Virus record (IMG/VR): IMGVR_UViG_3300037467_001087
Location: 1-46,122 of that record
DNA: 46,122 nucleotides
DNA from: a virus
Taxonomy: Duplodnaviria > Caudoviricetes
Direction: 5' to 3' (one strand)
Part shown: positions 4,555 through 24,088 of the stretch, one piece after another
Layout of the letters: every line of letters begins with the position of its first letter
Numbering within the stretch: position 1 is the stretch's first letter
Notes under the pieces: model-generated
The model's database searches: none
Seen by the model: the letters and a program-made list of their open reading frames with translations, nothing else
What the model was told of the DNA's origin: nothing
Position numbers and translations under genes: made by a program

Positions 4555-4763
4555 TTCGCGCGCAGCCCTTTCGACGGGGTCTTCTTCACGCCCGCGGTCG
4601 ACCGCGCGTCAACGTCGTCGATCTTGTCCTCGAGCGCGCGCAGCCGTTTCCGCGTTCCCTGAAACAGGTCGTCCACGTCCTGCCGCAGCGACACGTGCCT
4701 GCGATGCGCATGCCAAGCCAACGCCACCAACCCGAGCGCGAGCAATCCGATCAGCCAAACCAT
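4551..4763 (-). CDS. small membrane protein
   Basis: N-terminal hydrophobic helix then a coiled coil; coupled to the terS stop. Confidence 0.65.
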   Translation of the reverse strand: MVWLIGLLALGLVALAWHAHRRHVSLRQDVDDLFQGTRKRLRALEDKIDDVDARSTAGVKKTPSKGLRAK

Positions 4764-5548
4764 CAGTCCTCTCCCTCTGCTTTCTTGAAAGCCTCGAACC
4801 CGTCAGCAACAGACTGCTCACGGCCCATCATCGCCCGGCAGTCAGCACACTCGCAGAACCCGTCACCGCTCGGCCACGAAACACGTGAAATCGGTGAGTT
4901 TGCGGAGGAGGGGGGAGGTAGTGGGCACCCGCCGCCGACGGGACCCTGAAGCTGATCCCCCCCGGGGGTATCTGCCGGCGCGGGCAAAGCCGCAGCCTCG
5001 ATGTCGGCCAGATCGCGTTGCAACGTGTCCGGCATTGCGGGCGGTATGTCGGACAATCGGCGTGCTTTGGCTTCCCATACCTCACCGATCAGCTGTTGCG
5101 CTTGCTGCCCATTGACGGCGACACCAACGTTGACCTGGACGCCGCCTTTAGGCGCAGCCATGCCACCGTGTTCTAGCAGTGAAGTCGCTGCTTTTATTCG
5201 ATCTTTCCGCAATGCGTCTTTGTCGCTGGCAATCTCGATCAGCGCACGGATCGCGACGGGAAGAGCGGTCTGAATGAGGCGTTCGCAGCTCGCGATGATG
5301 TAGTCGGCGACTCGCTTCCGACAGAGCAATCGGCACGCCTGGACGCTCGCGGAGGCTTCAGGATAGCCAGCTGCAATGGCCGCTTCGGTCGCCTTTGCGC
5401 CGTTCGCCATGAACACGTCGCAGAAAATTCGTTCGGGTGCCGAGAGCTTGGACGCGGCGCTAACACTGCCCTCGTCTTCCGCGACCTCTTCGACCGTCGC
5501 AATGGCATGCGCTACGTTCACCGGCGCGGGTATCTCATCGACCCACAC
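4763..5548 (-). CDS. terS: terminase small subunit
   Basis: LSAPERIFCD...ATEAAIAAGY...ASVQACRLL HTH typical of TerS; lies upstream of terL. Start uncertain (GTG 5548 or 5521). Confidence 0.85.
   Translation of the reverse strand: MWVDEIPAPVNVAHAIATVEEVAEDEGSVSAASKLSAPERIFCDVFMANGAKATEAAIAAGYPEASASVQACRLLCRKRVADYIIASCERLIQTALPVAIRALIEIASDKDALRKDRIKAATSLLEHGGMAAPKGGVQVNVGVAVNGQQAQQLIGEVWEAKARRLSDIPPAMPDTLQRDLADIEAAALPAPADTPGGDQLQGPVGGGCPLPPPSSANSPISRVSWPSGDGFCECADCRAMMGREQSVADGFEAFKKAEGED
5528..5544. promoter_or_regulatory. possible operator at the start of terS
   Basis: GGGTA-TCTCATC-GACCC, one mismatch from consensus, with a less AT-rich spacer than the other sites. Confidence 0.4.
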
Positions 5549-5834: not shown

Positions 5835-5862
5835 TTGACTGTGATGGGTATATAATGTACCC
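5835..5862 (+). promoter_or_regulatory. early promoter with overlapping operator
   Basis: TTGACT (5835) then GGGTA-TATAATG-TACCC (5846-5862); same geometry as the promoters at 14752 and 14029. Confidence 0.8.
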
Positions 5863-5910
5863 GCAAGCCAGCGGGACGGATTGTCTCGCGACACAGCCAA
5901 GGAGAATGAA

Positions 5911-6270
5911 ATGCTCACGCCAGAACCGATTATCTACGTGCCCGGATCGCTCGCCGACGGAATGGGCGCGATCCATTTGGACGAGCTGGCGCAGCGCGCC
6001 GCGTCGCTTTCGCGGCAGTCGGTCACCGTCCTGACATACGGCCCGAGCAAGCACCACAGCTTCCGCCGCTTCCGCAGCGACCATCTTCCGCTGATGATCA
6101 CCGACAACAAGGTTGAGGAGGCGATCCGCCGCCTTCAGCTGATCCGCGCCGAGACGAACAAGACCAGGCGCGAGAACACCATTGACGCCCTGATCGCACT
6201 GCTGCGCCAGCCAGAAGCCGAGCCGCAGGTCGATATTGGCGAGGTCACCAAAGACGAGGAATGGGCATGA
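5911..6270 (+). CDS. hypothetical early protein
   Basis: AAGGAG RBS before ATG 5911; first gene after the promoter. Confidence 0.75.
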   Translation: MLTPEPIIYVPGSLADGMGAIHLDELAQRAASLSRQSVTVLTYGPSKHHSFRRFRSDHLPLMITDNKVEEAIRRLQLIRAETNKTRRENTIDALIALLRQPEAEPQVDIGEVTKDEEWA

Positions 6271-6404
6271 TGCGCCCCGATCCGCGCAGCTTCGGCCGCA
6301 AGTTACCCGCCGAGCCCGCGAGCAGCGACGGTGCGGCATTCGTGATCCTTGCGCTGCTGGTCGCGGCATATTTCGCCGGTCAGCTCGCGCGCCTGATTTT
6401 CTGA
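6267..6404 (+). CDS. small membrane protein (45 aa, not in ORF track)
   Basis: ATGA overlap; MMRPDPRSFGRKLPAEPASSDGAAFVILALLVAAYFAGQLARLIF has one transmembrane helix. Confidence 0.6.
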   Translation: MMRPDPRSFGRKLPAEPASSDGAAFVILALLVAAYFAGQLARLIF

Positions 6405-6475
6405 CGCGATCTGGCGGGCCGGTGCGATCAGCCCGCCTAACCGCGGCAGTCGCGGACAACGAAGGAGTAATCTCG

Positions 6476-6676
6476 ATGCACACGTTGAAGAACTGGCGCG
6501 CGAAACGCGCAGGGGGCCGGATCACGGTCTATGGCACGAACGCCGAAACAGGTCAGGCCGACAAAGTCGTCGGCGTGGATGTGATTGAACCTCACAAGTT
6601 CAAGCAGGGCATTTTCACAATCGAGGCCGCGCTCGCGACCGACAAGAACGGCGAAAAGCACCTGCTGCGAGCCTGA
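6476..6676 (+). CDS. hypothetical early protein
   Basis: GAAGGAG RBS; MHTLKNWRAKRAGGRITVYG... Confidence 0.7.
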   Translation: MHTLKNWRAKRAGGRITVYGTNAETGQADKVVGVDVIEPHKFKQGIFTIEAALATDKNGEKHLLRA

Positions 6677-6746
6677 TCCGACCTAGCGCGGTGGTCAGAG
6701 CGCCGCGCTCAGCCGCATCAGCGGACCACAGCCAAGGAGTAAGAAC

Positions 6747-7082
6747 GTGAAGACATTAGAGGATCGGGGCGCGTATTTGGGCGCGCTCCTCATGCAACGA
6801 GAACGGCGCGAAGTGCCTAGCGTCGTCGCTCGCGACGTTGCCGAGCTTCGCAAGGCCGCGAAGTCGCTCGAAAATCTGGCCGTGAACGACTGCAATTACG
6901 GCTTGTCGCCACGACAGGAAACGCGCCGCGCCAATCTGGCGAAGCAGGTTCAGGAGATAGCCGAGCGCTACCACCTTGCAGCCGAGACGAGCGGCGATCC
7001 GCGCGGCTGCGTGGTCAAGCTGTTCGACCCAGGCGACGAACGCCTAGGCGACGGCTTCGGCGGCGGCTGGCCGGTTTATTGA
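6747..7082 (+). CDS. hypothetical early protein
   Basis: AAGGAG RBS, GTG start, 111 aa with a GDPRG motif. Confidence 0.75.
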   Translation: MKTLEDRGAYLGALLMQRERREVPSVVARDVAELRKAAKSLENLAVNDCNYGLSPRQETRRANLAKQVQEIAERYHLAAETSGDPRGCVVKLFDPGDERLGDGFGGGWPVY

Positions 7083-7095
7083 GGGAGGGCGGATC

Positions 7096-7299
7096 ATGGC
7101 GAAATTCACACTCGAAATCGACTGCGACAACGCCGCCTTCGGTGAGAGCGAAGCGGACGTTGCGAGCGAGCTAGGGCGCATCCTCTACCAACTCGCGCTG
7201 CGCTTCACAGACGGCAGCGACGGGCCGGAGATTAGGCACAATGGAAGGCCCATGGACGCCAACGGCAACAGCGTCGGCAGCTGGACCTATAGCGGCTGA
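7096..7299 (+). CDS. hypothetical early protein
   Basis: GGAGG RBS; FTLEIDCDNAAF...D.NGN.VG.W pattern typical of small phage early proteins. Confidence 0.75.
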   Translation: MAKFTLEIDCDNAAFGESEADVASELGRILYQLALRFTDGSDGPEIRHNGRPMDANGNSVGSWTYSG

Positions 7300-7374
7300 C
7301 TGCAACCCACGCGGGCCGGTCAGAGCGACCCGCGCAAGATGCAGCCAGCATCACCACAGCCAAGGAGAACGAAC

Positions 7375-7569
7375 GTGGCGAAATTTGAATTCGCAGTGAA
7401 CACCGAGCGGTCATTCTACGAGGTCGAGGCCGAGAACGAAGAGCAAGCCCGAAAGCTGCTCTACGACAACCCGGAGGAATATTACACAGGCTGTCATCAC
7501 GACACCATCGACGACGAGAACAGCTACGAGCTCGTCGACGTGATGGACGAAGAGGCCGCCGCAGCATGA
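7375..7569 (+). CDS. acidic hypothetical early protein
   Basis: AAGGAG RBS, GTG start; YEVEAENEEQA motif, very acidic. Confidence 0.7.
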   Translation: MAKFEFAVNTERSFYEVEAENEEQARKLLYDNPEEYYTGCHHDTIDDENSYELVDVMDEEAAAA

Positions 7570-7721
7570 CCCGCACGGACCAGGCACCGCGCGACCGTGA
7601 CCGCGATCGCGCATGGTGCGAGCTGCGGACGAAATGCCCGCTGCGATCGAAGGGCAAGCCCGTCGAAGATCCGGCGCACCTGCCGCTGTTCGTCGCGGCG
7701 GACGAGCCGAAGCTGATATGA
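7566..7721 (+). CDS. hypothetical protein (51 aa, not in ORF track)
   Basis: ATGA overlaps at both ends; ends ...PAHLPLFVAADEPKLI. Confidence 0.6.
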   Translation: MTRTDQAPRDRDRDRAWCELRTKCPLRSKGKPVEDPAHLPLFVAADEPKLI

Positions 7722-7954
7722 CCAGGTCGAACCGACGCGAGGTCCGCAATCCGATCCTGGCGCTACCGAGTGCCAAGCGGATCGAGGAACTGTCACCGCT
7801 CAACCGCGCCGCCTTGCGTGGCGTCCTGCTCGACATTGCGCAGGATGCTCGCGAGCGCGCGAACGAGTGCTGGCGGAAGCACAAGGCACCAATGGCCGCG
7901 TACTGGAAGGCGGTCAGCGTTTATGCAGGGCACATCGCAAAGGTGCTAAGGTGA
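7718..7954 (+). CDS. hypothetical protein
   Basis: ATGA-coupled; MTRSNRREVRNPILALP...WRKHKAPMAAYWKA. Confidence 0.7.
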   Translation: MTRSNRREVRNPILALPSAKRIEELSPLNRAALRGVLLDIAQDARERANECWRKHKAPMAAYWKAVSVYAGHIAKVLR

Positions 7955-8084
7955 AGCCGCCGTTCACCATAACAGTAATCGACAGACGCACGGACCAGCG
8001 AGCCACAGCGAGCTTGCGCCTATCTACTAACCTTCGACAACATGCTCGGGCTCGGAAAGAGTGGACATGAAGGGGAGTGCGTAG

Positions 8085-8270
8085 ATGCTTCGGGTTTTGG
8101 ATTTTCTCAACGCAAAAGAGCTGGGCCAGGTCGCTGGCGCTGTGGTGTTGGCGGTCGGCATGACGCCGAACGTTAAGGTCACGGTGCCAAAGCCAGCCGA
8201 CGGATGCAGTTGGAAGGAGTGCTACGAACGAGGATTGGAGCGGCTATCGCACCCCGACGATTTGATGTAG
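8085..8270 (+). CDS. hypothetical protein
   Basis: GGGGAG RBS; 61 aa; last gene of the operon. Confidence 0.5.
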   Translation: MLRVLDFLNAKELGQVAGAVVLAVGMTPNVKVTVPKPADGCSWKECYERGLERLSHPDDLM

Positions 8271-8345
8271 AGGACAGCCACAGCATGACTTCTCGCTTGG
8301 CTGTGAGAAGGGAACCCCGTCGGAGCGATTCGGCGGGGTTCTTTC
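8271..8345 (+). ncRNA. candidate antisense sRNA (seed hairpin plus terminator)
   Basis: Stem CTTCTC/GAGAAG with loop GCTTGGCTGT, complementary to the repeated CACAGCCAAGGAGAA RBS motif; followed by a terminator hairpin. Confidence 0.55.
8312..8345 (+). terminator. intrinsic terminator between convergent operons
   Basis: 13-bp stem GAACCCCGTCGGA/TTCGGCGGGGTTC (G-U pairs favour the + strand), GCGA tetraloop, short T run. Confidence 0.75.
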
Positions 8346-8385: not shown

Positions 8386-10671
8386 CTAGAACGGAACGTC
8401 GTCCTGCGGGCCGACAGGCGGCGGCGGACGCGCGGACCAGTCATCGGGGGCGATGAACACCTTCGCCACCTTCCCCTCATAGCGCTCCGTGTTTGCAATC
8501 CACCCAAGCGCGCGGAGGCAAGCGCCGACCTGGCGCGAGTGCCGCGGCTCCTGCCGGTCGGGATCGAGCTTCACGCCGCGGGTCAGCGCATCCACGATGG
8601 TCACGCGCGTTAGCAATTCCTTCCGCAGCCACGCATCAAGCACCGGCTCCCACGGATGAACCTCGCGGCGCCGCGCCTGTTCGGCCTTGGCGTCGGCGAT
8701 GTCGTCTTCGTCTTCAAGGTGCCACGCCTCGCCGGCCACGAACGCGAACACGGCTTCGGCCCACAGCTGATCGCGGTCGCGCAGGATCGCATCGGTGTCG
8801 ATCCGCGTCGTCTCGATCGGCCAGAAGCGCCGTGCTCCGGTCGGGTCGCGCAGGTAGCCGCCCTCTTCCGGGTTGACCGTGCCCCAAAACACGGTGCGGC
8901 GCGCGACCTGGATCGCCATGCGCCCGTACGGAGGCCGAAACTTGTCGACCAGCCGCGACAGGAACTGCTTCACGTCTTTGACGTCGGCTTTGGTCAGCGC
9001 CGACAACTCGGCGACTTCGACGCACCACGCGCCCTGCAGCTGCTGAAAGCTGTCCTTCGAGTGAAAGTCGGGCAGGTGGTCGATGAAGAACCGATCGCCG
9101 AACAGGTAGCGAAGAGCGGTCGACTTTCCGGTTCCCTGCTCGCCCTCAAGCACCGGCATGGTGTCGTTCTTGCACCCCGGCGACAGCGCGCGCGCAACGG
9201 CTCCGACCAGCGCCTTGCGCCCGACGGTCTGCGTGTAGTGAGTCGACGGCGCACCGAGATAGTCGGTCAGCCAGCAGTCGATGCGCGGCTTGCCGTCCCA
9301 CTTCAGGCTGTGGAGGTACTCGGTCAGCGGGTCGAACTGGTTGCGGCGCGCGTCCGCCTCCATCTCGTCCTGAACGTCGCCCTTCTTCGCCTTGAAGCGG
9401 TCGGCGTGCATGATGCGGCGAAACTCGGCGACGTGGAAATCCTCGAGGCTGTTGCCGTCGAGCTCCATCTCTTTCGTGAGTTGATTGAAGCGCAGCCGCC
9501 CTTTGAGCAGCCGGTGATTGGCGAGGTACAGCGCCACGCCCTCGACGTTGTTGCCGTCAGGGCTTCCGGCCGACGTCAGCGGGATTTTCGAGCGCCAGCT
9601 TTCGTCCTGCACCTGGTCGATCGGGATGATCGCTGCACCAGGCGCGACGTCCTCGGCTTCAACCGAGCGCATCGCACCGATGACCTGGCCGGCGACGGCT
9701 TGCTCGCCTTCGAGCAGGAACAGGTCGTTGAAGTCCGTCCGGCTGCGCGCTGGACCTTCACTAAAAACGGGCGTGATCCAGCGACACCCGACCGCCTTGG
9801 CTGCAGCTTCCGCTTTCACCCGTCCGACGTTCTGCCACGGGCGATTTTGCGCCCTCTCGGCCCAATCCTCGGGCGCAATCACGTCGTCGTCCCCGGCGAT
9901 CATCAGCGTTGCGAGCGGACGGTGACGCGCGAAGTCCTTGGCGACCGGGATCAGGTTGCCGCTGTTGAACGCGGCGACCACCGACACGCCGGTCGACTGC
10001 CAGATCGAGAAGGCCGTCGCCACGCCTTCGCAGATGACGATCAGGCTGGCATCGCCCTTGATCGAGAAGAAGCACCCCTCGACGCGGCCGCCCTTGAGGA
10101 AGGTCTTCTTCCCGTCGCCGTCGATGAGCTGCAGGTTGGTCAGCTGCGGCGTCCCGTTCATGTCGAACGCGTACATCGGCACGGCGAGCAGCTTGGTCCC
10201 GTCGCGGGCGGTGAACAGGCGCAGCGATCGCGGCACGCTGATGCCCTTGCGCTCAAGGTAGGGGTGGCCTTCGACGTTGCCGTCCGACCGGCCCCACTTG
10301 TTCGACGCGTCCTCGGCGACCTCGGCTTGGCGGGTCTCGCGCGCCTGGGCGGCTTCCGCCTTCAGCTTCGCCTGTTCGCGCTTGATCGCGTCGCGCTCTT
10401 TCTTGCTGAGCGTCGGCCGCTCCGGGTCTTCGTAGAACCACTGATGCTGCTCGCCGATCTTCCAGTCGCCGAACCAGCCGACCGGATATTGCCCGGTCTT
10501 CAGCTTGTAGAAGCCGTTGCCCTTGCCCGGCTTGTCGCCAGGTGCGTCGAAGCGGACGAACCCGGGCGTGTCCGACTGGACCGCGCCGCGCGGGTAGAAG
10601 CCGGCCTCGGCCATTGCCTTCTCAAAGGCGCGTTCGACGTCCGACGTCGCGGGGAGCGGGCGCGAGGCCAT
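8386..10671 (-). CDS. Toprim primase fused to a VirE/VapE-type helicase
   Basis: Toprim ICEGVATA...IAGDDD; P-loop LEGEQGTGKST; FRPPYGR and DPTGARRFWP motifs of the VirE family. Confidence 0.9.
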   Translation of the reverse strand: MASRPLPATSDVERAFEKAMAEAGFYPRGAVQSDTPGFVRFDAPGDKPGKGNGFYKLKTGQYPVGWFGDWKIGEQHQWFYEDPERPTLSKKERDAIKREQAKLKAEAAQARETRQAEVAEDASNKWGRSDGNVEGHPYLERKGISVPRSLRLFTARDGTKLLAVPMYAFDMNGTPQLTNLQLIDGDGKKTFLKGGRVEGCFFSIKGDASLIVICEGVATAFSIWQSTGVSVVAAFNSGNLIPVAKDFARHRPLATLMIAGDDDVIAPEDWAERAQNRPWQNVGRVKAEAAAKAVGCRWITPVFSEGPARSRTDFNDLFLLEGEQAVAGQVIGAMRSVEAEDVAPGAAIIPIDQVQDESWRSKIPLTSAGSPDGNNVEGVALYLANHRLLKGRLRFNQLTKEMELDGNSLEDFHVAEFRRIMHADRFKAKKGDVQDEMEADARRNQFDPLTEYLHSLKWDGKPRIDCWLTDYLGAPSTHYTQTVGRKALVGAVARALSPGCKNDTMPVLEGEQGTGKSTALRYLFGDRFFIDHLPDFHSKDSFQQLQGAWCVEVAELSALTKADVKDVKQFLSRLVDKFRPPYGRMAIQVARRTVFWGTVNPEEGGYLRDPTGARRFWPIETTRIDTDAILRDRDQLWAEAVFAFVAGEAWHLEDEDDIADAKAEQARRREVHPWEPVLDAWLRKELLTRVTIVDALTRGVKLDPDRQEPRHSRQVGACLRALGWIANTERYEGKVAKVFIAPDDWSARPPPPVGPQDDVPF

Positions 10672-12322: not shown

Positions 12323-13710
12323 CCGGTCCGCCTCCACCGCTGGCGCAGCTTCCACTGGTAGATCGCCCAGCCGGATTTGTAGCCGCGCTGCTTGCCGAGC
12401 CGCATCCAGTCCTCGAGCGACTGGCACGCGCGCTCTTCGGCCTTGCGCGCTTCCTTCTCGCGGCGCTTGGCTTCGATCCGCTCGAGCTCGAACAGCTCGC
12501 CTTCAGCGAAGCACGTGAGCCGGACGCGCGCGGGGAATACGACGCCGCACCCCGGGCAATGGTCCGCCGACGACGGCGAGACGCGATAGCATTCGGTGCA
12601 CTGGCGGATCGGCAGCGCGTCGGAGGGACCCTTGGCGCCGCGCTTCGAGCGCTTGCGCCCTTCGAGCGTCCACTCGCGATCGTCGTCGGGCAGGCCGTGG
12701 CGGAACGCGTTGCCCGCATGGTCGCAGATGACGGCGCACGACTTGCCGGGAACCACGCGCAGAGCCCGGCCCACCTGTTGAAGATGGAGGGCCAGGCTCT
12801 GCGTCGGCCGAGCGAGGCCAACGTATGAGACGTTCGGGACGTCGAAACCTTCGCCGAACAGCTCGCAATTCGTCAATATCTGAATGTCGCCGGCGCGGAA
12901 CCGGTCAATCGTCATCTTCCGCAGCGCTTGCGGCGTCTCGCCACTGACCGCCGCCGCAGTGATGCCGGCCGCATTGAACGCAGCCGCAATGTGGATCGCG
13001 CTCTGGACGTCGACCGCGAAGACGATGCCCTGCAGCCCTTCGGCCAGCTTGAGGTATGTCGCCACGACGTCGCCGATGAGCTGCGACGTTCCCATGACCT
13101 TCGCGATGTCGCCGCGGTTGAAGTCGCCGCCCAGCACGCGGACCCCGGCAAGGTCCGGCTGTCCCGGCGCGAAGTAGCGGTACGTCGACAGCCAGCCGTC
13201 GGCGATCAGCTGCTTGACCGACGGGCCGACGATCAGCTCGTCGAAGTGATCCTTGAGCCCGCGGCCGTCGAGCCGCTCGGGCGTGGCGGTCAGGCCGACC
13301 GTGTAGGCGTCATGCCCGGTCAGGCAGCGCGCCCAGGTCGCCGCGACCATGTGGTGCGCTTCGTCGGGGACGATGAAGTCCGGCGCCTCGGCTTCGTGGA
13401 GCCGCCGTGCCAGCGTGTCGATCGCGCACAGCTGGACCGGCGCGAACCCGTTGACCGGATAGCCCGCCGCCATGAAGCCGTGCGGGACGTCGAGCAGGGT
13501 CAGCTTCTCGCTCGTTTGGTCGAGCAGCTCGCGGCGATGGACGACGAACCAGCTGCGCTTGCTGCGTTCGGCCGCGCCGCCCAGCATAGTGCCCGACAGG
13601 ATCGTCTTGCCCGCGCCGGTCGGTTGCTGCAGCAGGACGCGCTTCACGCCGGCACGAAGCCTCGCGCGCACGCGCTCTAGGTCAGCCTCCTGATAGGGCC
13701 GAAGCTGCAC
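12319..13710 (-). CDS. SF2 DEAD/DEAH-box helicase with C-terminal Zn finger
   Basis: LRPYQ, PTGAGKT, DEAHH, TATP, QQVGRALR, CTEC...CPGCG. Confidence 0.93.
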   Translation of the reverse strand: MQLRPYQEADLERVRARLRAGVKRVLLQQPTGAGKTILSGTMLGGAAERSKRSWFVVHRRELLDQTSEKLTLLDVPHGFMAAGYPVNGFAPVQLCAIDTLARRLHEAEAPDFIVPDEAHHMVAATWARCLTGHDAYTVGLTATPERLDGRGLKDHFDELIVGPSVKQLIADGWLSTYRYFAPGQPDLAGVRVLGGDFNRGDIAKVMGTSQLIGDVVATYLKLAEGLQGIVFAVDVQSAIHIAAAFNAAGITAAAVSGETPQALRKMTIDRFRAGDIQILTNCELFGEGFDVPNVSYVGLARPTQSLALHLQQVGRALRVVPGKSCAVICDHAGNAFRHGLPDDDREWTLEGRKRSKRGAKGPSDALPIRQCTECYRVSPSSADHCPGCGVVFPARVRLTCFAEGELFELERIEAKRREKEARKAEERACQSLEDWMRLGKQRGYKSGWAIYQWKLRQRWRRTG

Positions 13711-14001: not shown

Positions 14002-14054
14002 TGGTATATTTCATACCCTTTTGCGTCAAACGGTTTTTGGTAGGAATTATACCC
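14002..14054. promoter_or_regulatory. OR-like operator pair and cro-direction promoter
   Basis: TGGTA-TATTTCA-TACCC (14002-14018) and TGGTA-GGAATTA-TACCC (14038-14054); TTGACG on the minus strand at 14029-14024. Confidence 0.8.
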
Positions 14055-14708
14055 ATGCTGTGCATTATCGACCCGCTCGTGACCGAACGAAGCGATCGTT
14101 TGCAGCGAGCTTTTAGAGAAAGCAGTTTCGCCGCCAAGGAGATGTCCGCGCGCGAGACTGCGATGATGCTCGGCTGGAATCCGAACAGCTTCAAGTCCAA
14201 CCTCAACGGCAATTCGCCGTTCAGCTACGACCAGGCCAAGCGCTATGCCGACAAGTTCCGCGTGCGGGCCGAATGGCTGTACGACGGCAACGGCCCGATG
14301 CGCGAGGTTCACCGGCCGGCGAGGCTCCCGATCGAGATACCAGTGATCGGCTGGGTCGCGGCCGGCGCGGTGACCGACGTAGGGCAGCTCGAGGAGGTCG
14401 ACCGCCTGGTTGTCGGCAACCTGCCGCCCGGCGAATATTTCGCGACCGAGATTGTCGGCGACTCGATGGACCGCGTGGCGCCGGAGGGTGCGTACATCAT
14501 CGTCAACGCCGCCGACCGCAATCCGCGCGACGGCAACATCTACATCTTCTCGCACCGCGGCGAGCCGACCGTGAAGCGCTACCGCTCGAAACCGGTCCGG
14601 CGACTCGAGCCGTTCAGCACCAACCCCACGCACGAGCCGATCTTCGTCGGCGACAAGGGTTGGCACTGCATTGGACGGGTCGTTCGCAGCGTAATCGACC
14701 TGGCCTAG
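14055..14708 (+). CDS. cI: CI-like repressor, HTH plus S24 autopeptidase
   Basis: EWLYDG, IPVIGWVAAG cleavage site, GDSM Ser and TVKR Lys. Start is ATG 14055 or GTG 14079, with no SD, so possibly leaderless. Confidence 0.92.
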   Translation: MLCIIDPLVTERSDRLQRAFRESSFAAKEMSARETAMMLGWNPNSFKSNLNGNSPFSYDQAKRYADKFRVRAEWLYDGNGPMREVHRPARLPIEIPVIGWVAAGAVTDVGQLEEVDRLVVGNLPPGEYFATEIVGDSMDRVAPEGAYIIVNAADRNPRDGNIYIFSHRGEPTVKRYRSKPVRRLEPFSTNPTHEPIFVGDKGWHCIGRVVRSVIDLA

Positions 14709-14728: not shown

Positions 14729-14779
14729 GGGTATAAAATACACCTTTTCTGTTGACTGTTCCGGGTAGCTTTTATACCC
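14729..14779 (+). promoter_or_regulatory. OL-like operator pair and early promoter
   Basis: GGGTA-TAAAATA-CACCT (14729-14745), TTGACT at 14752, GGGTA-GCTTTTA-TACCC (14763-14779). Confidence 0.8.
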
Positions 14780-14807
14780 ATACGGTCAGCAGCCAAGGAG
14801 AACCCCG

Positions 14808-14963
14808 ATGATGGTCGCAATCTTCACCGTCGTTGCCGTCGTATTCCTCGTCTTCACTGTCGGCGCGGCTGGGCAGGACAGCGAGGACAAGGCGGTCGCG
14901 ATCGGCTTCCTCGTCGGCTTAGTCTCGCTGGCTGCGGCCTTCTTCGCAGGACGCTACTCGTGA
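14808..14963 (+). CDS. small two-TM membrane protein (51 aa, not in ORF track)
   Basis: AAGGAG RBS; MMVAIFTVVAVVFLVFTVGAAGQDSEDKAVAIGFLVGLVSLAAAFFAGRYS. Confidence 0.7.
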   Translation: MMVAIFTVVAVVFLVFTVGAAGQDSEDKAVAIGFLVGLVSLAAAFFAGRYS

Positions 14964-17283: not shown

Positions 17284-18379
17284 AATCGTCCCCGAAGCCG
17301 AAACCGGCACCGACCTGATCGTCGCTGAAGCGCAACGCAATGCCGTCGCGCTCTTCACCGACGAGCAAAAATATGACGAGTTCTACAAGCGCGTTCGCGA
17401 CAGCGTCTCCGGCTTCGTCCCCGACGTGACCACCGACAAGGGGCGCCGCGAGGTCGCCAGCGTCGCGTTCCGCGTCACCAAGGCGAAAACTACGCTCGAC
17501 AAGGCCGGCCTGGCGCTGACGGAGGAGTGGCGCCAAAAGACGAACGCCGTCAACGCTGCCCGCAAGAAGATGGTCACGCAGCTCGACGCGCTGGCCGATG
17601 AAATCCGCCAACCGCTTACCGAGTGGGAGCAGCAGGAGGCCGAACGTCAGGCCCGCGTCGACGACGTGATCCAGAAGCTGCGGAATGCTGCAACCGTCGC
17701 GGAGGGCGAAACGGCGGCTGACGTCGAGGCCCGCCTGAAGCGGATTACAGAATTCGAGCCCGACGAAGCCGTCTTCCAAGTGCGCATCGCCGAAGCTCGC
17801 GACACGCGGGATGCCACGGCCGCGAGTCTCGAACGCTCCGTCTTGCGGCTGCGCCAGGAAGAGGCGGACCGCGTCGAGCTGGAACGGCTGCGTCGTGAAG
17901 CGGCGGAACGCGAGGAGGCCGAACGTATCGCCCGCGAGGAGCGCGAGCGTGAAGAACAGGAACGACTGGCCCGCGAAGCCGAGGAGCGTGCACGGATCGA
18001 GGCTGAAGAGCGTCGCAAGGCCGAAATAGCAGCCGCCGAGGAGCGGGCCCGAGTTGAGGCCGAAGAGCGCGCCCGGGCCGAGGAGCGGCGCGTCGCTGAA
18101 GAACAACTGGCCGAAGAACGCCGCGCTCGCGAAGCTGCCGAACGCGAAGCCGACGAACGCCGCCGCGCCGAAGAAGAGCGCGCGGCGTGGGAGGCCAAGG
18201 AAAAGAGAGAGCGCGAGGCTCGCGAAGCCGACGAACGACATCGAAAAGCCGTGCTTGCCGAAGTCGCAGAGGACATCGCCGCTTCGTTGTTCACCGCGCC
18301 CGAGAAGGCGGACGTGGCCCAGGCGCTCGCCAATGCGATCGCCGCCGGCAATATCCGCCATGTCAGGGTGGAGTTCTGA
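17267..18379 (+). CDS. long coiled-coil phage protein
   Basis: DVTTDKGRREVASVA..V.KAKT N-terminal domain and an E/R/A-rich helix; AGGAG RBS. Confidence 0.8.
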   Translation: MATAAEIVPEAETGTDLIVAEAQRNAVALFTDEQKYDEFYKRVRDSVSGFVPDVTTDKGRREVASVAFRVTKAKTTLDKAGLALTEEWRQKTNAVNAARKKMVTQLDALADEIRQPLTEWEQQEAERQARVDDVIQKLRNAATVAEGETAADVEARLKRITEFEPDEAVFQVRIAEARDTRDATAASLERSVLRLRQEEADRVELERLRREAAEREEAERIAREEREREEQERLAREAEERARIEAEERRKAEIAAAEERARVEAEERARAEERRVAEEQLAEERRAREAAEREADERRRAEEERAAWEAKEKREREAREADERHRKAVLAEVAEDIAASLFTAPEKADVAQALANAIAAGNIRHVRVEF

Positions 18380-18798
18380 TGACCCAGCCCGAACCGCCGC
18401 ACCGCCACAACGGCGGGCCGCTCAGCGATGAGGACGCTCGGCGGCTGTGGAACCACGTTCGCGCGCTCGAGAACCTCGAGGAGCAGAAGGCCGACCTTAA
18501 CCTGGACATCAAGGCGCGCAAGGAACTGGCGAAGGCCGACGGGTTCGACACCAACATCGTCGGCATCATCCTGAAGCGACGGAAGGCCGGCGCCGGCGAG
18601 ACCTATGCGGCCGACACCTTGCTCAAGCTCTACGAGGAAGCGCTCGAGGAGCAGGGCGTGTTGCCGCTCGAGAAGACGCGCGCCGCCCAGCCGCAACGAA
18701 GATCGACGGAGCAGATCGCGCAAGACCTGCACGGCGAAGAAGCGCCGGAGAACGTCCGGCTTTCACAGCAAGGAGAAGAGAAACATGGCGTCCATTGA
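18379..18798 (+). CDS. gapR: GapR/DUF2312 nucleoid-associated protein homologue
   Basis: ENLEEQKADLNLDIK...AKADGFDTNIVGIILKRRK...LKLYEEAL matches the GapR pattern. Confidence 0.85.
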   Translation: MTQPEPPHRHNGGPLSDEDARRLWNHVRALENLEEQKADLNLDIKARKELAKADGFDTNIVGIILKRRKAGAGETYAADTLLKLYEEALEEQGVLPLEKTRAAQPQRRSTEQIAQDLHGEEAPENVRLSQQGEEKHGVH

Positions 18799-19087
18799 CG
18801 AAGGTGCTGTGCGGTCTGCGCAACCGCCCCGGGAAAAGCCGTCCGAGGAAGTGATCGCTACAATCGAGCAGCTGAACAATCGGCTGTCGGGACTAGCTGC
18901 GAATTTGGCGGACCTGCGCGAGCGCGTGTCAGGGTCGCGCCCGCCGGAGCAGGGCAACCGCGACGTGGCCGCCACGGCGTTCGCTATCGGGGGCTTCGTC
19001 GGGAGCGCCGGCCAAGGGCTCGAAAGGGCGCACGCGCTCGTCGGCGACATCGAAACCACGCTGTCCAACATCGTCGACGTAATTTAA
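18785..19087 (+). CDS. hypothetical protein
   Basis: AAGGAG RBS; MASIDEG... Confidence 0.65.
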   Translation: MASIDEGAVRSAQPPREKPSEEVIATIEQLNNRLSGLAANLADLRERVSGSRPPEQGNRDVAATAFAIGGFVGSAGQGLERAHALVGDIETTLSNIVDVI

Positions 19088-19150
19088 CCCGGCTCCCCAA
19101 GGGGCGGCGGCCCGACTCCCCGCCGCCCCACCCACAGCCAAGGAACCGAG

Positions 19151-20020
19151 ATGACCCTAACCCTCACCGAAGCCGCCGACCGCTGGGCCGAATATCGCGG
19201 CCGTTGCGTCAGTCTCGGCCTGGTCGCCGCTTCGACGTTCAGCAACCAGCGGCAGATCGTCGGCGCCGCGATCCTGCCAAGCCTGGGCGCGATGCAGATC
19301 GACGCGATCCACAAGTCGGACGTGACGCTGTGGGTCGGCGAGCGGCTGCAGACCCGGGCCCCAGTGACCGTCCGCGCCGAGCTTAACGTGCTTCGGCAGA
19401 TCCTGAATTGGTGCGTCGACGAGCAGCTGCTTGGCGCCCGCCCGCGGCTCCCGACCGTGCAGGTGCCGAACGTCGAGGAAGCGCTGCCGAGCGACGCCGC
19501 GTTCCTGTGGGCGCTGAAGTCCGTGCCCGAGCATCACCGCGACGCGCTCGAGCTGATGATGCTGACCGGCCTGTCGCCGCATGAAGCCGAGCGCCTGCAG
19601 GTCCGCGACTTCGACCTGGGCCGTCTCGCGCTGGGCGTCGGCCAGCGTCCAGACTTCAAGGTGAAGACCCCGAGCCGTCGTCGCTTGGTGCCGCTCAACA
19701 AGCGCGCGCTGGCACTGTGGCGCCGGCTGACCAACGGCAAGCGCCCGCTCGACAATGCGCTGCCGTCCAGCTGTTCGATGCAGAAGGCGATCGCGCGCGC
19801 CCGACACGGCGATCCTGATGCGCCGGCCGATGCGCGCCGCGTCACCCCGAAGCTGATGCGCCAGTGGTTCGCGAGCGAAGTCACGAACGACGGCGAGGTC
19901 CCCGAGAAGGTGCTGCAGCGCCTGATGGGGCACGCGCCTGGGTCGAAGATCACGAGGCGGCATTACATCCGATCGACGGACGAGCAGATGAAGCAAGCCG
20001 TGGGAGGGCTGAGGGCGTGA
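19151..20020 (+). CDS. tyrosine recombinase-like protein with altered catalytic residues
   Basis: Core-binding plus catalytic fold (LTGLSPHE, KT, PKLMR, LMGH, RHY); no arm-binding domain. Confidence 0.8.
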   Translation: MTLTLTEAADRWAEYRGRCVSLGLVAASTFSNQRQIVGAAILPSLGAMQIDAIHKSDVTLWVGERLQTRAPVTVRAELNVLRQILNWCVDEQLLGARPRLPTVQVPNVEEALPSDAAFLWALKSVPEHHRDALELMMLTGLSPHEAERLQVRDFDLGRLALGVGQRPDFKVKTPSRRRLVPLNKRALALWRRLTNGKRPLDNALPSSCSMQKAIARARHGDPDAPADARRVTPKLMRQWFASEVTNDGEVPEKVLQRLMGHAPGSKITRRHYIRSTDEQMKQAVGGLRA

Positions 20021-22840: not shown

Positions 22841-23019
22841 CTGCGCGCACCAGCTTCAAGCAGGACGACGTCTCCCGCGCCGTTAAGGGCGTAAAGGCGG
22901 CTGGGCTGCAGGTGGCGCGCGTCGTTGTAGTCGAAGGCCGAATTGAGGTTATTGTCGGCGAACCCGACTCGGAGAAGGTAAACCCTTTGGACCGGCTGCT
23001 GAATGGCAAGAAGACCTAA
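22837..23019 (+). CDS. putative excisionase / recombination directionality factor
   Basis: FKQDDVSRAVKGVKAAGL small protein overlapping the start of int. Confidence 0.6.
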   Translation: MTARTSFKQDDVSRAVKGVKAAGLQVARVVVVEGRIEVIVGEPDSEKVNPLDRLLNGKKT

Positions 23020-24088
23020 GCGCGACCCGTACACGACCCTCATGCGCGACCGCCACGGTCGGGAGCGATGCAGGTTCAGACGCAATGGGCAGGACATCTA
23101 CCTGCCCCATCCAGAGCATCCAGATTACAAAGCTGCATACGAAGCGGCTATGGCCGGCGCACCACAGCCGGTCGAGGCGCGCGTTGTCGCTCGGTCGGTC
23201 GGCGACTTGGTTGCCCGCTTCTACCGGAGCGCCAAATTCCTGAAGGCGAGCGAAGCGCACCGCCGCACGGTGCGTAGCATCGTCGAGCCGTTCCGCGTCG
23301 AGTTTGCAAAAGACATGGTGGAGAACTTCAGGTTCGACCACGTCGAAGCCGTCTTGCTCGAGCGAGCCGAGAAACGCGTTATCGGGAAGCGAACTGTCGG
23401 AGGACCAGGCGCCGCGGCGAACCTCCACGATCAGCTGAAGCGCCTCTTCGCCTACGCGATCCGGTTAGGGTGGATCGCTCGCAATCCGGCCGAGGAGGCT
23501 GAATTGCCAGTCAAGGCCGAGCGCGTCGGTTTCCACAGTTGGACCGAAGAGGAAATCACCGCCTTCCAGAAGCGGCACGCGCTGGGCACGAAGGCGCGGC
23601 TGGCGCTCGAGCTCATGCTCTGGACCGGGCTACGCCGCGCTGATGCGGTGCGCGTTGGGCCGCAGCACATCAAAGGAGGCAGGATCCGGCTCACCGCCGG
23701 GAAGACAGGCAAGATGGTCGATGTTCTCGCGGCGCCGCCCTTGGTCGCTGCAATCGTCGCGATGCCGGCGGTCGGCATGACGACCTTGCTCGTGACCGAG
23801 TACGGCCGGCCCTTCACGGTGGCCGGCTTTGGTGGCTGGTTCCGAGAGCGCTGCGACGAAGCGGGCTTGCCGCAGTGCACGGCGCACGGGCTTCGGAAGG
23901 CACTTGCTCGCCGAGCGGCCGACCTGGGCGCCACGCAGCAACAACTGAAGGCGGTCGGCCAGTGGTCGAGCGACTCGGACGTTGCGACGTACACCGCTGA
24001 TGCCGAGCAGCGTGCGTTGGCCGACGCAGCTATTGCGAAAGTAATCGAATGGACGAAAGGATTGTCTAACCCTGCATCTGAAGGTTAG
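23003..24088 (+). CDS. int: integrase (tyrosine recombinase)
   Basis: Complete R-K-H-R-W-Y set (TGLRRAD, GKT, HGLR, GQW, ATY); adjacent to attP. Confidence 0.95.
   Translation: MARRPKRDPYTTLMRDRHGRERCRFRRNGQDIYLPHPEHPDYKAAYEAAMAGAPQPVEARVVARSVGDLVARFYRSAKFLKASEAHRRTVRSIVEPFRVEFAKDMVENFRFDHVEAVLLERAEKRVIGKRTVGGPGAAANLHDQLKRLFAYAIRLGWIARNPAEEAELPVKAERVGFHSWTEEEITAFQKRHALGTKARLALELMLWTGLRRADAVRVGPQHIKGGRIRLTAGKTGKMVDVLAAPPLVAAIVAMPAVGMTTLLVTEYGRPFTVAGFGGWFRERCDEAGLPQCTAHGLRKALARRAADLGATQQQLKAVGQWSSDSDVATYTADAEQRALADAAIAKVIEWTKGLSNPASEG

Follow-up and report, generated by a model that had tools for sequence, protein, structure and literature searches.

Does the hairpin that lies between the left early operon and the convergent primase gene of this temperate phage belong to a small RNA, and is that RNA addressed to a sequence shared by the ribosome binding sites of several of the phage's own early genes? 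This was proposed from a reading of the letters alone (the original prediction), which placed here an RNA antisense to a motif overlapping the Shine–Dalgarno (SD) sequence of up to six early genes. The proposal is followed below through the window, i.e., the whole stretch of 46,122 nucleotides analysed, which is a complete 46-kb virus record, and through phages with related primase genes.

The element and its surroundings

The window carries genes for portal, terminase, major head protein, DNA ejection protein, primase-helicase, integrase, and a second tyrosine recombinase. None of the isolated phages searched was close to this phage, and its host is probably a sphingomonad, since the two named homologues of its primase come from Sphingomonas species, S. 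paeninsulae (66% identity) and S. baiyangensis (62%). The two repressor-controlled operons of the original prediction are recovered: the promoter patterns at 5835 and 14752 are both overlapped by the operator-like GGTA-N7-TACC, and a repressor gene with an S24 domain is present (Table 1). More copies of GGTA-N7-TACC are located at 14003, 14039, and 14730; such repeats occupy both divergent control regions (5529–5543, 5847–5861, 14003–14053, and 14730–14778), and a weaker copy lies at the start of the small terminase gene.

Table 1. Coordinates of the features of the window, with the basis or rank of each.
Position	Strand	Feature	Basis or remark
5835..5863	+	Promoter pattern TTGACT-17-TACCCG with overlapping operator-like GGTA-N7-TACC (5847-5861)	Pattern
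5892..5906	+	Target tag and SD of ORF 5911-6270, first gene of the left early operon	Rank 1/121, -12.7 kcal/mol net
6727..6739	+	Target tag and SD of ORF 6747-7082	Rank 5/121
7355..7369	+	Target tag and SD of ORF 7375-7569	Rank 2/121
8268..8273	+	Candidate -10 element TAGAGG, overlapping the stop codon of ORF 8085-8270	TGTAGAGG conserved in G001
8274..8284	+	Cis copy ACAGCCACAGC, predicted seed mask in transcripts starting at or before 8274 only	P(8277:8301)
8280..8345	+	Predicted small RNA gene, about 65 nt	Unit conserved in 8/10 clade members
8289..8310	+	Seed hairpin: 8-bp stem, 6-nt loop UUGGCU (8297-8302)	Folding
8311..8345	+	Terminator-like hairpin, GCGA loop, short U tail, between convergent operons	Folding
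8386..10671	-	Primase-helicase gene (VapE type), convergent on the element	Marker for fetching relatives
14055..14708	+	CI-like repressor gene, peptidase S24 domain	PF00717, E 3e-17
14752..14780	+	Promoter pattern TTGACT-17-TACCCA with overlapping operator-like GGTA-N7-TACC (14764-14778)	Pattern
14790..14802	+	Target tag and SD of ORF 14808-14963, first gene past the repressor	Rank 6/121
18764..18778	+	Target tag (one C missing) and SD of ORF 18785-19087	Rank 4/121
19133..19144	+	Target tag and SD of the second tyrosine recombinase gene 19151-20020 (PF00589)	Rank 3/121

The hairpin-terminator element sits between the end of the left early operon (5911–8270, +) and the convergent primase gene, and every string originally read there is found in place. 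Folding retains the seed hairpin at its proposed position and revises its shape, since an 8-bp stem (one G–U pair) with a 6-nt loop is predicted instead of a 6-bp stem with a 10-nt loop. From a 5' end at 8280, the +1 obtained by counting 12 nt past the first base of the −10 element, this hairpin is predicted to form with P 1.0. It contains the seed UGGCUGUG (8298–8305), and its 5' arm UUCUC is predicted to pair across the SD. The sequence TGGCTGTG has a single + strand occurrence in the 46 kb, located in this hairpin. The segment 8286–8345 folds with z = −5.5, and the + strand, favoured from the outset as the RNA, folds at −39.6 kcal/mol vs −31.8 for the − strand. The terminator-like hairpin is absent from the list of a simple terminator scanner because its U tail is short. 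As for a promoter, the window unit has only the −10 element TAGAGG, common to it and one relative (G001), together with a poor −35 region and no TTG-N20-TA match.

A copy of the tag just upstream of the hairpin had been suggested to mask the seed until the RNA is processed. In silico, the masking part of this suggestion holds for read-through transcripts of the window, where ACAGCCA (8274–8280) pairs with the seed: the pair 8277:8301 has P 0.64–0.99 for six of the seven 5' ends tried and 0.13 for one. Processing is not needed, and transcripts that begin at 8277 or beyond leave the loop free (P 0.92–1.0). According to this modelling, read-through early mRNA would hide the seed and a short transcript would expose it. 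Since the cis copy is missing in G001, the mask is not conserved and represents a local feature.

Tagged leaders in the window

The six leader matches of the original prediction were confirmed. Among 121 SD-led starts, defined mechanically and ranked by predicted pairing with opening costs included, these leaders take ranks 1 to 6 with net values of −12.7 to −9.2 kcal/mol; rank 7 (−9.1) is practically equal to rank 6, rank 8 stands at −7.4, and the median of the 121 starts is −1.2. A cruder ranking leaves two window targets outside the top ten and places non-tag leaders second in G001 and in another relative, L237. When 23-nt pieces of the genome are compared as partners of the six leaders (45,722 pieces, taken at every second start and prefiltered on one target), the seed hairpin is the best, with the runner-up only 1.1 kcal/mol behind. 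Moreover, the 15-mer CACAGCCAAGGAGAA finds 6 matches at ≤3 mismatches, compared with 0.73 ± 0.84 in 100 shuffles, none of which reaches 6. One of these six matches, at 14129, lies inside the repressor coding sequence rather than in a leader and was not counted among the targets.

In all six window targets, the predicted duplex spans the SD, and the leaders themselves are predicted to be open, with an opening cost of 1.9–3.7 kcal/mol. The invariant part of the pairing is that of the loop core UGGC with GCCA directly 5' of the SD, while the pairing across the SD varies. The tag core ends 10–14 nt ahead of the start codon, and the genes behind the six tags are all non-structural. Two of the targets open their operons, with leaders <40 nt from predicted promoters, and four are internal genes. 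The tagged genes are unrelated to one another, belong to separate operons, and lie on either strand.

No function was found for the small target genes in PHROGs, Pfam, or NCBIfam, and antirepressor families were unmatched. Tagged genes in relatives include those for DUF2958, DUF3846, and DUF6166 proteins, an AAA ATPase, and the recombinase, as well as a 368-aa gene in G004 annotated by position and first residues only. The tagged recombinase gene of the window is the shorter of two tyrosine recombinase genes (19151–20020 and 23003–24088); it is kept in 5 relatives with 47–71% identity and has almost no match among isolated phages. A gene for a GapR-like DNA-binding protein (18379–18753, +; PF10073) directly precedes two tagged genes.

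Three genes of the early operon are also preceded by similar leader units (6408–6452, 6683–6722, and 7309–7352), each consisting of a GC hairpin, in two cases with GGTCAGAGCG in the region of its loop, and a second, small hairpin ahead of the ribosome binding site. Related units occur in G001 and G002, and they are possibly cassette boundaries or processing sites. The leader at 6479 contains the leader unit, with the tag absent.

Conservation of the unit and co-change of seed and tags

Primase searches yielded nine distinct relatives with 55–84% identity, together with one identical copy; the whole records of G001–G004 were read. The hairpin-plus-terminator unit is present just past the primase gene in 8/10 phages, the window counted. 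It comprises a hairpin of 6–9 bp with UGGC in the loop, followed by a GC-rich terminator hairpin, and this order is constant in all eight. Stem sequences differ among the homologues, with 6–9 pairs kept and G–U pairs in 5/8 stems, and a consensus of five homologues folds into two side-by-side hairpins. The terminator hairpin accompanies the seed hairpin throughout (8/8), with a U tail that is short in the window and almost missing in G004. The RNA gene was looked for and not found in G003 (92% complete), and neither the RNA gene nor tags were found in L239, a 6.3-kb piece.

The unit lies on the strand of the early operon in three phages (window, G001, and L238) and is inverted onto the primase strand in the other five (G002, L237, L038, L240, and G004). 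Since it survives inversion, it should carry its own promoter. The pattern TTG-N20-TA is found 18–49 nt upstream of the loop in 5/8 homologues, against a background of 0.4–2.8% per 60 nt, and a relaxed form in 7/8, in all cases on the UGGC strand. Among the nine matches to this pattern in the window, four are operator-overlapped promoters (5835, 13982, 14029, and 14752). Most −10 elements of these promoter patterns are without the −7 T, as is usual in alphaproteobacteria according to the account given in PMC8407463. In 5/8 homologues the implied +1 coincides with the hairpin foot, 6–10 nt ahead of the loop, and from the implied +1 the UGGC core is predicted to be unpaired in 8/8 (P 0.84–1.0). 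The strand preference given by folding energy is weak or reversed for three of the hairpins (those with seed B, see below), and no operator-like repeat was found near the unit in the eight phages. The RNA had been envisaged as either derived from a 3' end or separately transcribed; judged by these promoter patterns, separate transcription is better supported than 3'-end processing.

Two seed types can be distinguished, namely seed A (UGGCUGUG), found in five phages, and seed B (CUGGCG), found in three, and the tags differ where the seed differs. In the seed A phages, ACAGCCA occurs in 4, 5, 4, 3, and 1 leaders, i.e., 17 in total where 0.75 are expected in all, and CGCCAGA in none (0.85 expected). 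In the seed B phages, CGCCAGA occurs in 0, 4, and 3 leaders (7 in total, 0.50 expected), and ACAGCCA in none of the leaders of the records tabulated (0.14 expected). Covariation of the loop with the leader motif, which the original prediction had named as a check, is thus what the relatives display: they keep the hairpin together with its tags. Tags kept where the hairpin is lost, the pattern named there as speaking against an RNA, are found in one of the ten phages, G003.

The fit extends beyond the seed. Among the five A phages, the arm that pairs with the SD fits its own phage best, the cognate assignment ranking 1/120, and the arms follow the phage (UUCUC/GAGAA in the window, UUCUUC/GAAGAA in G002, and GGCUC/GAGCC in L237), although the GC-rich arm of L237 may inflate this score. 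Over all eight phages, the cognate assignment of RNAs to targets ranks 3/40,320 with target sets that are automatic and noisier. The targets of these tests were picked by motif, and L238 and L038 give one target each. On the primase tree, the seed A phages form one group (84/92), which makes the switch between A and B one event rather than a repeated convergence; one of the eight inner branches of this tree is well supported, and the primase of a distant phage, L224, was left out of it on account of stops in the frame taken.

The leader of the recombinase gene carries a tag in 4/6 orthologues, of type A in the window, G001, and G002 and of type B in L038, and the tag is absent from those of G003 and G004. 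The single leader of L038, which precedes the recombinase orthologue, contains a one-base variant of the tag and is predicted to pair over 17 bp at −26.7 kcal/mol. L531, whose IMG/VR taxon prefix is that of L038 and which was fetched after the B seed had been defined, displays GCCAGA beside the SD in 3/12 early-strand leaders, and we infer that it is the other part of the L038 prophage. One of these three L531 leaders bears both tag types and is predicted to pair about equally with the A RNA (−17.0) and the B RNA (−17.8). In G003, ACAGCCA is present in 2 leaders and CGCCAGA in 2 leaders; its B and mixed tag-like sequences include those at leaders 16233 (−) and 5600 (−) of the G003 record (L509–L510). 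Loss of the RNA gene, or control by a co-resident phage, are possible explanations for these tags.

Searches beyond the clade covered several collections. Four DNA pattern scans of IMG/VR (33, 120, 106, and 81 loci) were reduced by filtering to copies of the window, G001, and G002, the other loci being chance-like, and two records with two tag-like leaders each (L600 and L611) had no model match over their whole length. Model R1 produced 11 matches on 96 distant primase loci, and the four alignments shown cover the terminator only. De novo scans for complements between loops and leaders were noisy (242 sequences; 108 of 399 in a stricter version), so that distant analogues may exist. For GTDB prophages of the clade, searches of genome contigs gave none or distant primases, and the best primase identity among 301 alphaproteobacterial genomes was 41%.

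Proposed mode of action, rival explanations, and known systems

The reading favoured here, with a probability of about 0.68, is that the locus would be a stand-alone gene for a trans-acting RNA of ~65 nt that blocks the translation of six early genes together. That a small RNA exists and pairs with the tags appears highly probable. Transcription would start at a sigma70-type promoter of the unit's own and end at the intrinsic terminator, as the sequence patterns suggest, and the exposed loop UUGGCU is predicted to start pairing on AGCCAA of a leader. The 8-bp stem would then open and the duplex would grow to 14–18 bp over the SD, at a predicted net energy of about −9 to −13 kcal/mol. From what is known of small RNAs in general, ribosome loading would be blocked, and polarity could spread downstream from the blocked operon-first genes, a possibility that arises because two targets are the first genes of repressor-controlled operons. 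The RNA would be made constitutively in the lysogen, where it would set a threshold by mopping up leaky early transcripts beneath CI, and it would be swamped on induction. It is expected in the lysogen because its gene lies without an operator, while two of its targets follow operator-overlapped promoters. Most likely, then, it would constitute a second silencing layer under the CI repressor. The assignment to the lysogen is the weakest step of this mechanism, the alternative stage being a shut-off of early genes in lytic growth. In a bolder extension, for which the odds appear somewhat unfavourable, the tagged genes would form an RNA-addressed regulon that genes join by gaining a tag beside the SD; one small RNA would silence the tagged set in the lysogen, and swaps of seed and tag would create RNA-defined immunity groups independent of CI.

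P4 CI RNA acts through transcript cleavage or premature termination, and here, too, a genuine pairing could have an outcome other than simple blocking: under guidance of the RNA the early transcripts might be cut or ended prematurely or, alternatively, be stabilized or activated. Sequence data reveal pairing and not its sign, and termination would be efficient at the two operon-first leaders, so close to their predicted promoters. However, the predicted duplexes cover the SD in each of the six window targets, four of which are internal, and the leaders are open, leaving no inhibitory structure for the RNA to relieve; such an outcome is considered unlikely. The RNA could also be real and act mainly on incoming related phages or host mRNAs, with the match to its own leaders being secondary. 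The two seed types do resemble two immunity groups, and c4 RNA underlies the heteroimmunity of P1 and P7, as outlined in a review (PMC12197685), but the co-change of the seed with the phage's own tags indicates selection on the phage's own leaders, and a role of this kind as the main one seems very improbable.

Other explanations dispense with pairing altogether. The tag may be a protein site, bound by an RNA-binding repressor or a DNA-binding factor, with the hairpin serving as an opposite-strand decoy or as a DNA site. The opposite strand of the hairpin displays the sense tag in its loop, the UGGC strand is unfavoured by folding in three B hairpins, and Pope et al., in their account of similar start-associated sequences, leave RNA or protein open. 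Nevertheless, whichever way the unit is turned, the promoter patterns and the order of the terminator lie on the UGGC strand, the G–U pairs of five stems would be A–C mismatches on the other strand, and beyond the seed the arm of each phage matches the SD context of that phage, all of which renders a protein site distinctly improbable. We also give very little credence to an explanation without regulation by the hairpin, which would be what remains of an inverted leader next to a terminator, the tags being either copied cassette leaders or enhancers of translation. Behind the sense tag on the opposite strand, the eight phages show no conserved reading frame, the stem is kept despite sequence change, and the tags, scattered over unrelated genes, separate operons, and both strands, change type when the seed does. 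Duplication does explain part of the likeness between the leaders before 6747 and 7375, which share further hairpin repeats upstream, and it fits this explanation that G003 keeps tags with no detectable RNA gene and that ACA motifs upstream of the SD can enhance translation, as reported in a study of GcvB (PMC3879156).

Under our preferred reading, a translation-blocking RNA in trans, the element would fall into the class of trans-encoded, seed-pairing small RNAs, with which it shares a conserved seed, predicted to be accessible, that is complementary to several translation-start regions. The original prediction had recognized no described family in it, and the Rfam search gave no match at gathering score at the element in the window, G001, G002, G003, G004, L038, L237, L238, L239, or L240. 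Even at E up to 10, the one match in the segment 8150–8450 is a weak one between sodF_sRNA and the terminator (22.9 bits vs 46). The element is very likely an undescribed small-RNA family. A search directed to the open-licence literature yielded no account of such a family, nor of any phage RNA directed at a tag that several genes of the same phage have in common.

Among known systems, c4 of P1 and P7 is described in the review as a phage-encoded, trans-acting RNA of ~77 nt whose loop sequences prevent translation by pairing with a phage mRNA around its ribosome binding site, with differences in specificity that define immunity (PMC12197685). The likeness to the element is that of a phage RNA predicted to pair in trans at a ribosome binding site. 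By the same account, however, the target of c4 is the ant (antirepressor) mRNA, whereas up to six genes in separate operons are predicted here. C4 adopts a multi-branched fold closed by an outer stem, unlike the element with its one hairpin and terminator and a single UGGC loop, and the C4 covariance model (RF01695, clan CL00128) leaves the element unmatched, yet it finds a true C4 RNA elsewhere in L238. C4 and P4 CI RNA act on an antirepressor or on their own operon transcript, in contrast to the six leaders in two operons here, which are without an antirepressor family match. P22 sar, lambda OOP, and aQ are listed in the review as short phage RNAs that repress a gene of the lysis-lysogeny circuit (PMC12197685); as characterized there, each has one target gene, and OOP and aQ are cis-encoded, whereas the element overlaps none of its predicted targets.

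GcvB provides a further parallel, as its G/U-rich seed is described as pairing just upstream of the SD with C/A-rich, ACA-containing elements of many mRNAs (PMC3879156), so that both cases involve one seed for several C/A-rich elements upstream of SDs. However, GcvB is chromosomal and directed at host amino-acid genes, whereas the element is phage-borne, with a seed that lies in a hairpin loop and is swapped between lineages. Finally, the start-associated sequences (SAS) of Cluster K mycobacteriophages are presented as a phage-specific, AGGAG-containing motif of unknown function just before many non-structural genes; four genomes carry one inverted copy away from gene starts, and binding by RNA or protein is left open in that description (PMC3203893). 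The arrangement is alike, a phage-specific asymmetric motif at the ribosome binding sites of non-structural genes, but the sequence differs: the SAS have 11–19 copies, as against about 6 tags here, another motif and host phylum, and no RNA partner proposed in that description.

The phage antisense RNAs covered by the review act on one phage gene or on host genes (PMC12197685). If the reading proposed here is true, a phage RNA addressing its own genes in separate operons through a shared tag, with seed and tags changing in concert, would add a second master layer to lysis-lysogeny control, and it would make the purpose of the start-associated motifs seen in other phages a testable question. Moreover, the two natural seed types could possibly be developed into orthogonal RNA switches for Sphingomonadales.

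Further loci came to light in the course of these searches. The C4 antisense RNA of L238 (60.6 bits) has a weak isrK-like match just upstream, the two lying at 2048–2130 (−) and 2128–2212 (−); its early operon also carries the type A element, i.e., two RNA systems in one operon. In L144, an unrelated short locus, a stretch containing TGGCTGTGA is followed by a clear terminator; it was considered as isrK-like and set aside, having no Rfam match. In L224, which also carries an RT-15 RNA at 4731–4916, a folded non-coding stretch before a lysozyme-like gene (13440–13500, +), with no Rfam match there, contains UGUGGUGGG, complementary to CCACCAC in 4 leaders; from its sequence, this stretch is a possible independent case of the same seed-tag logic.
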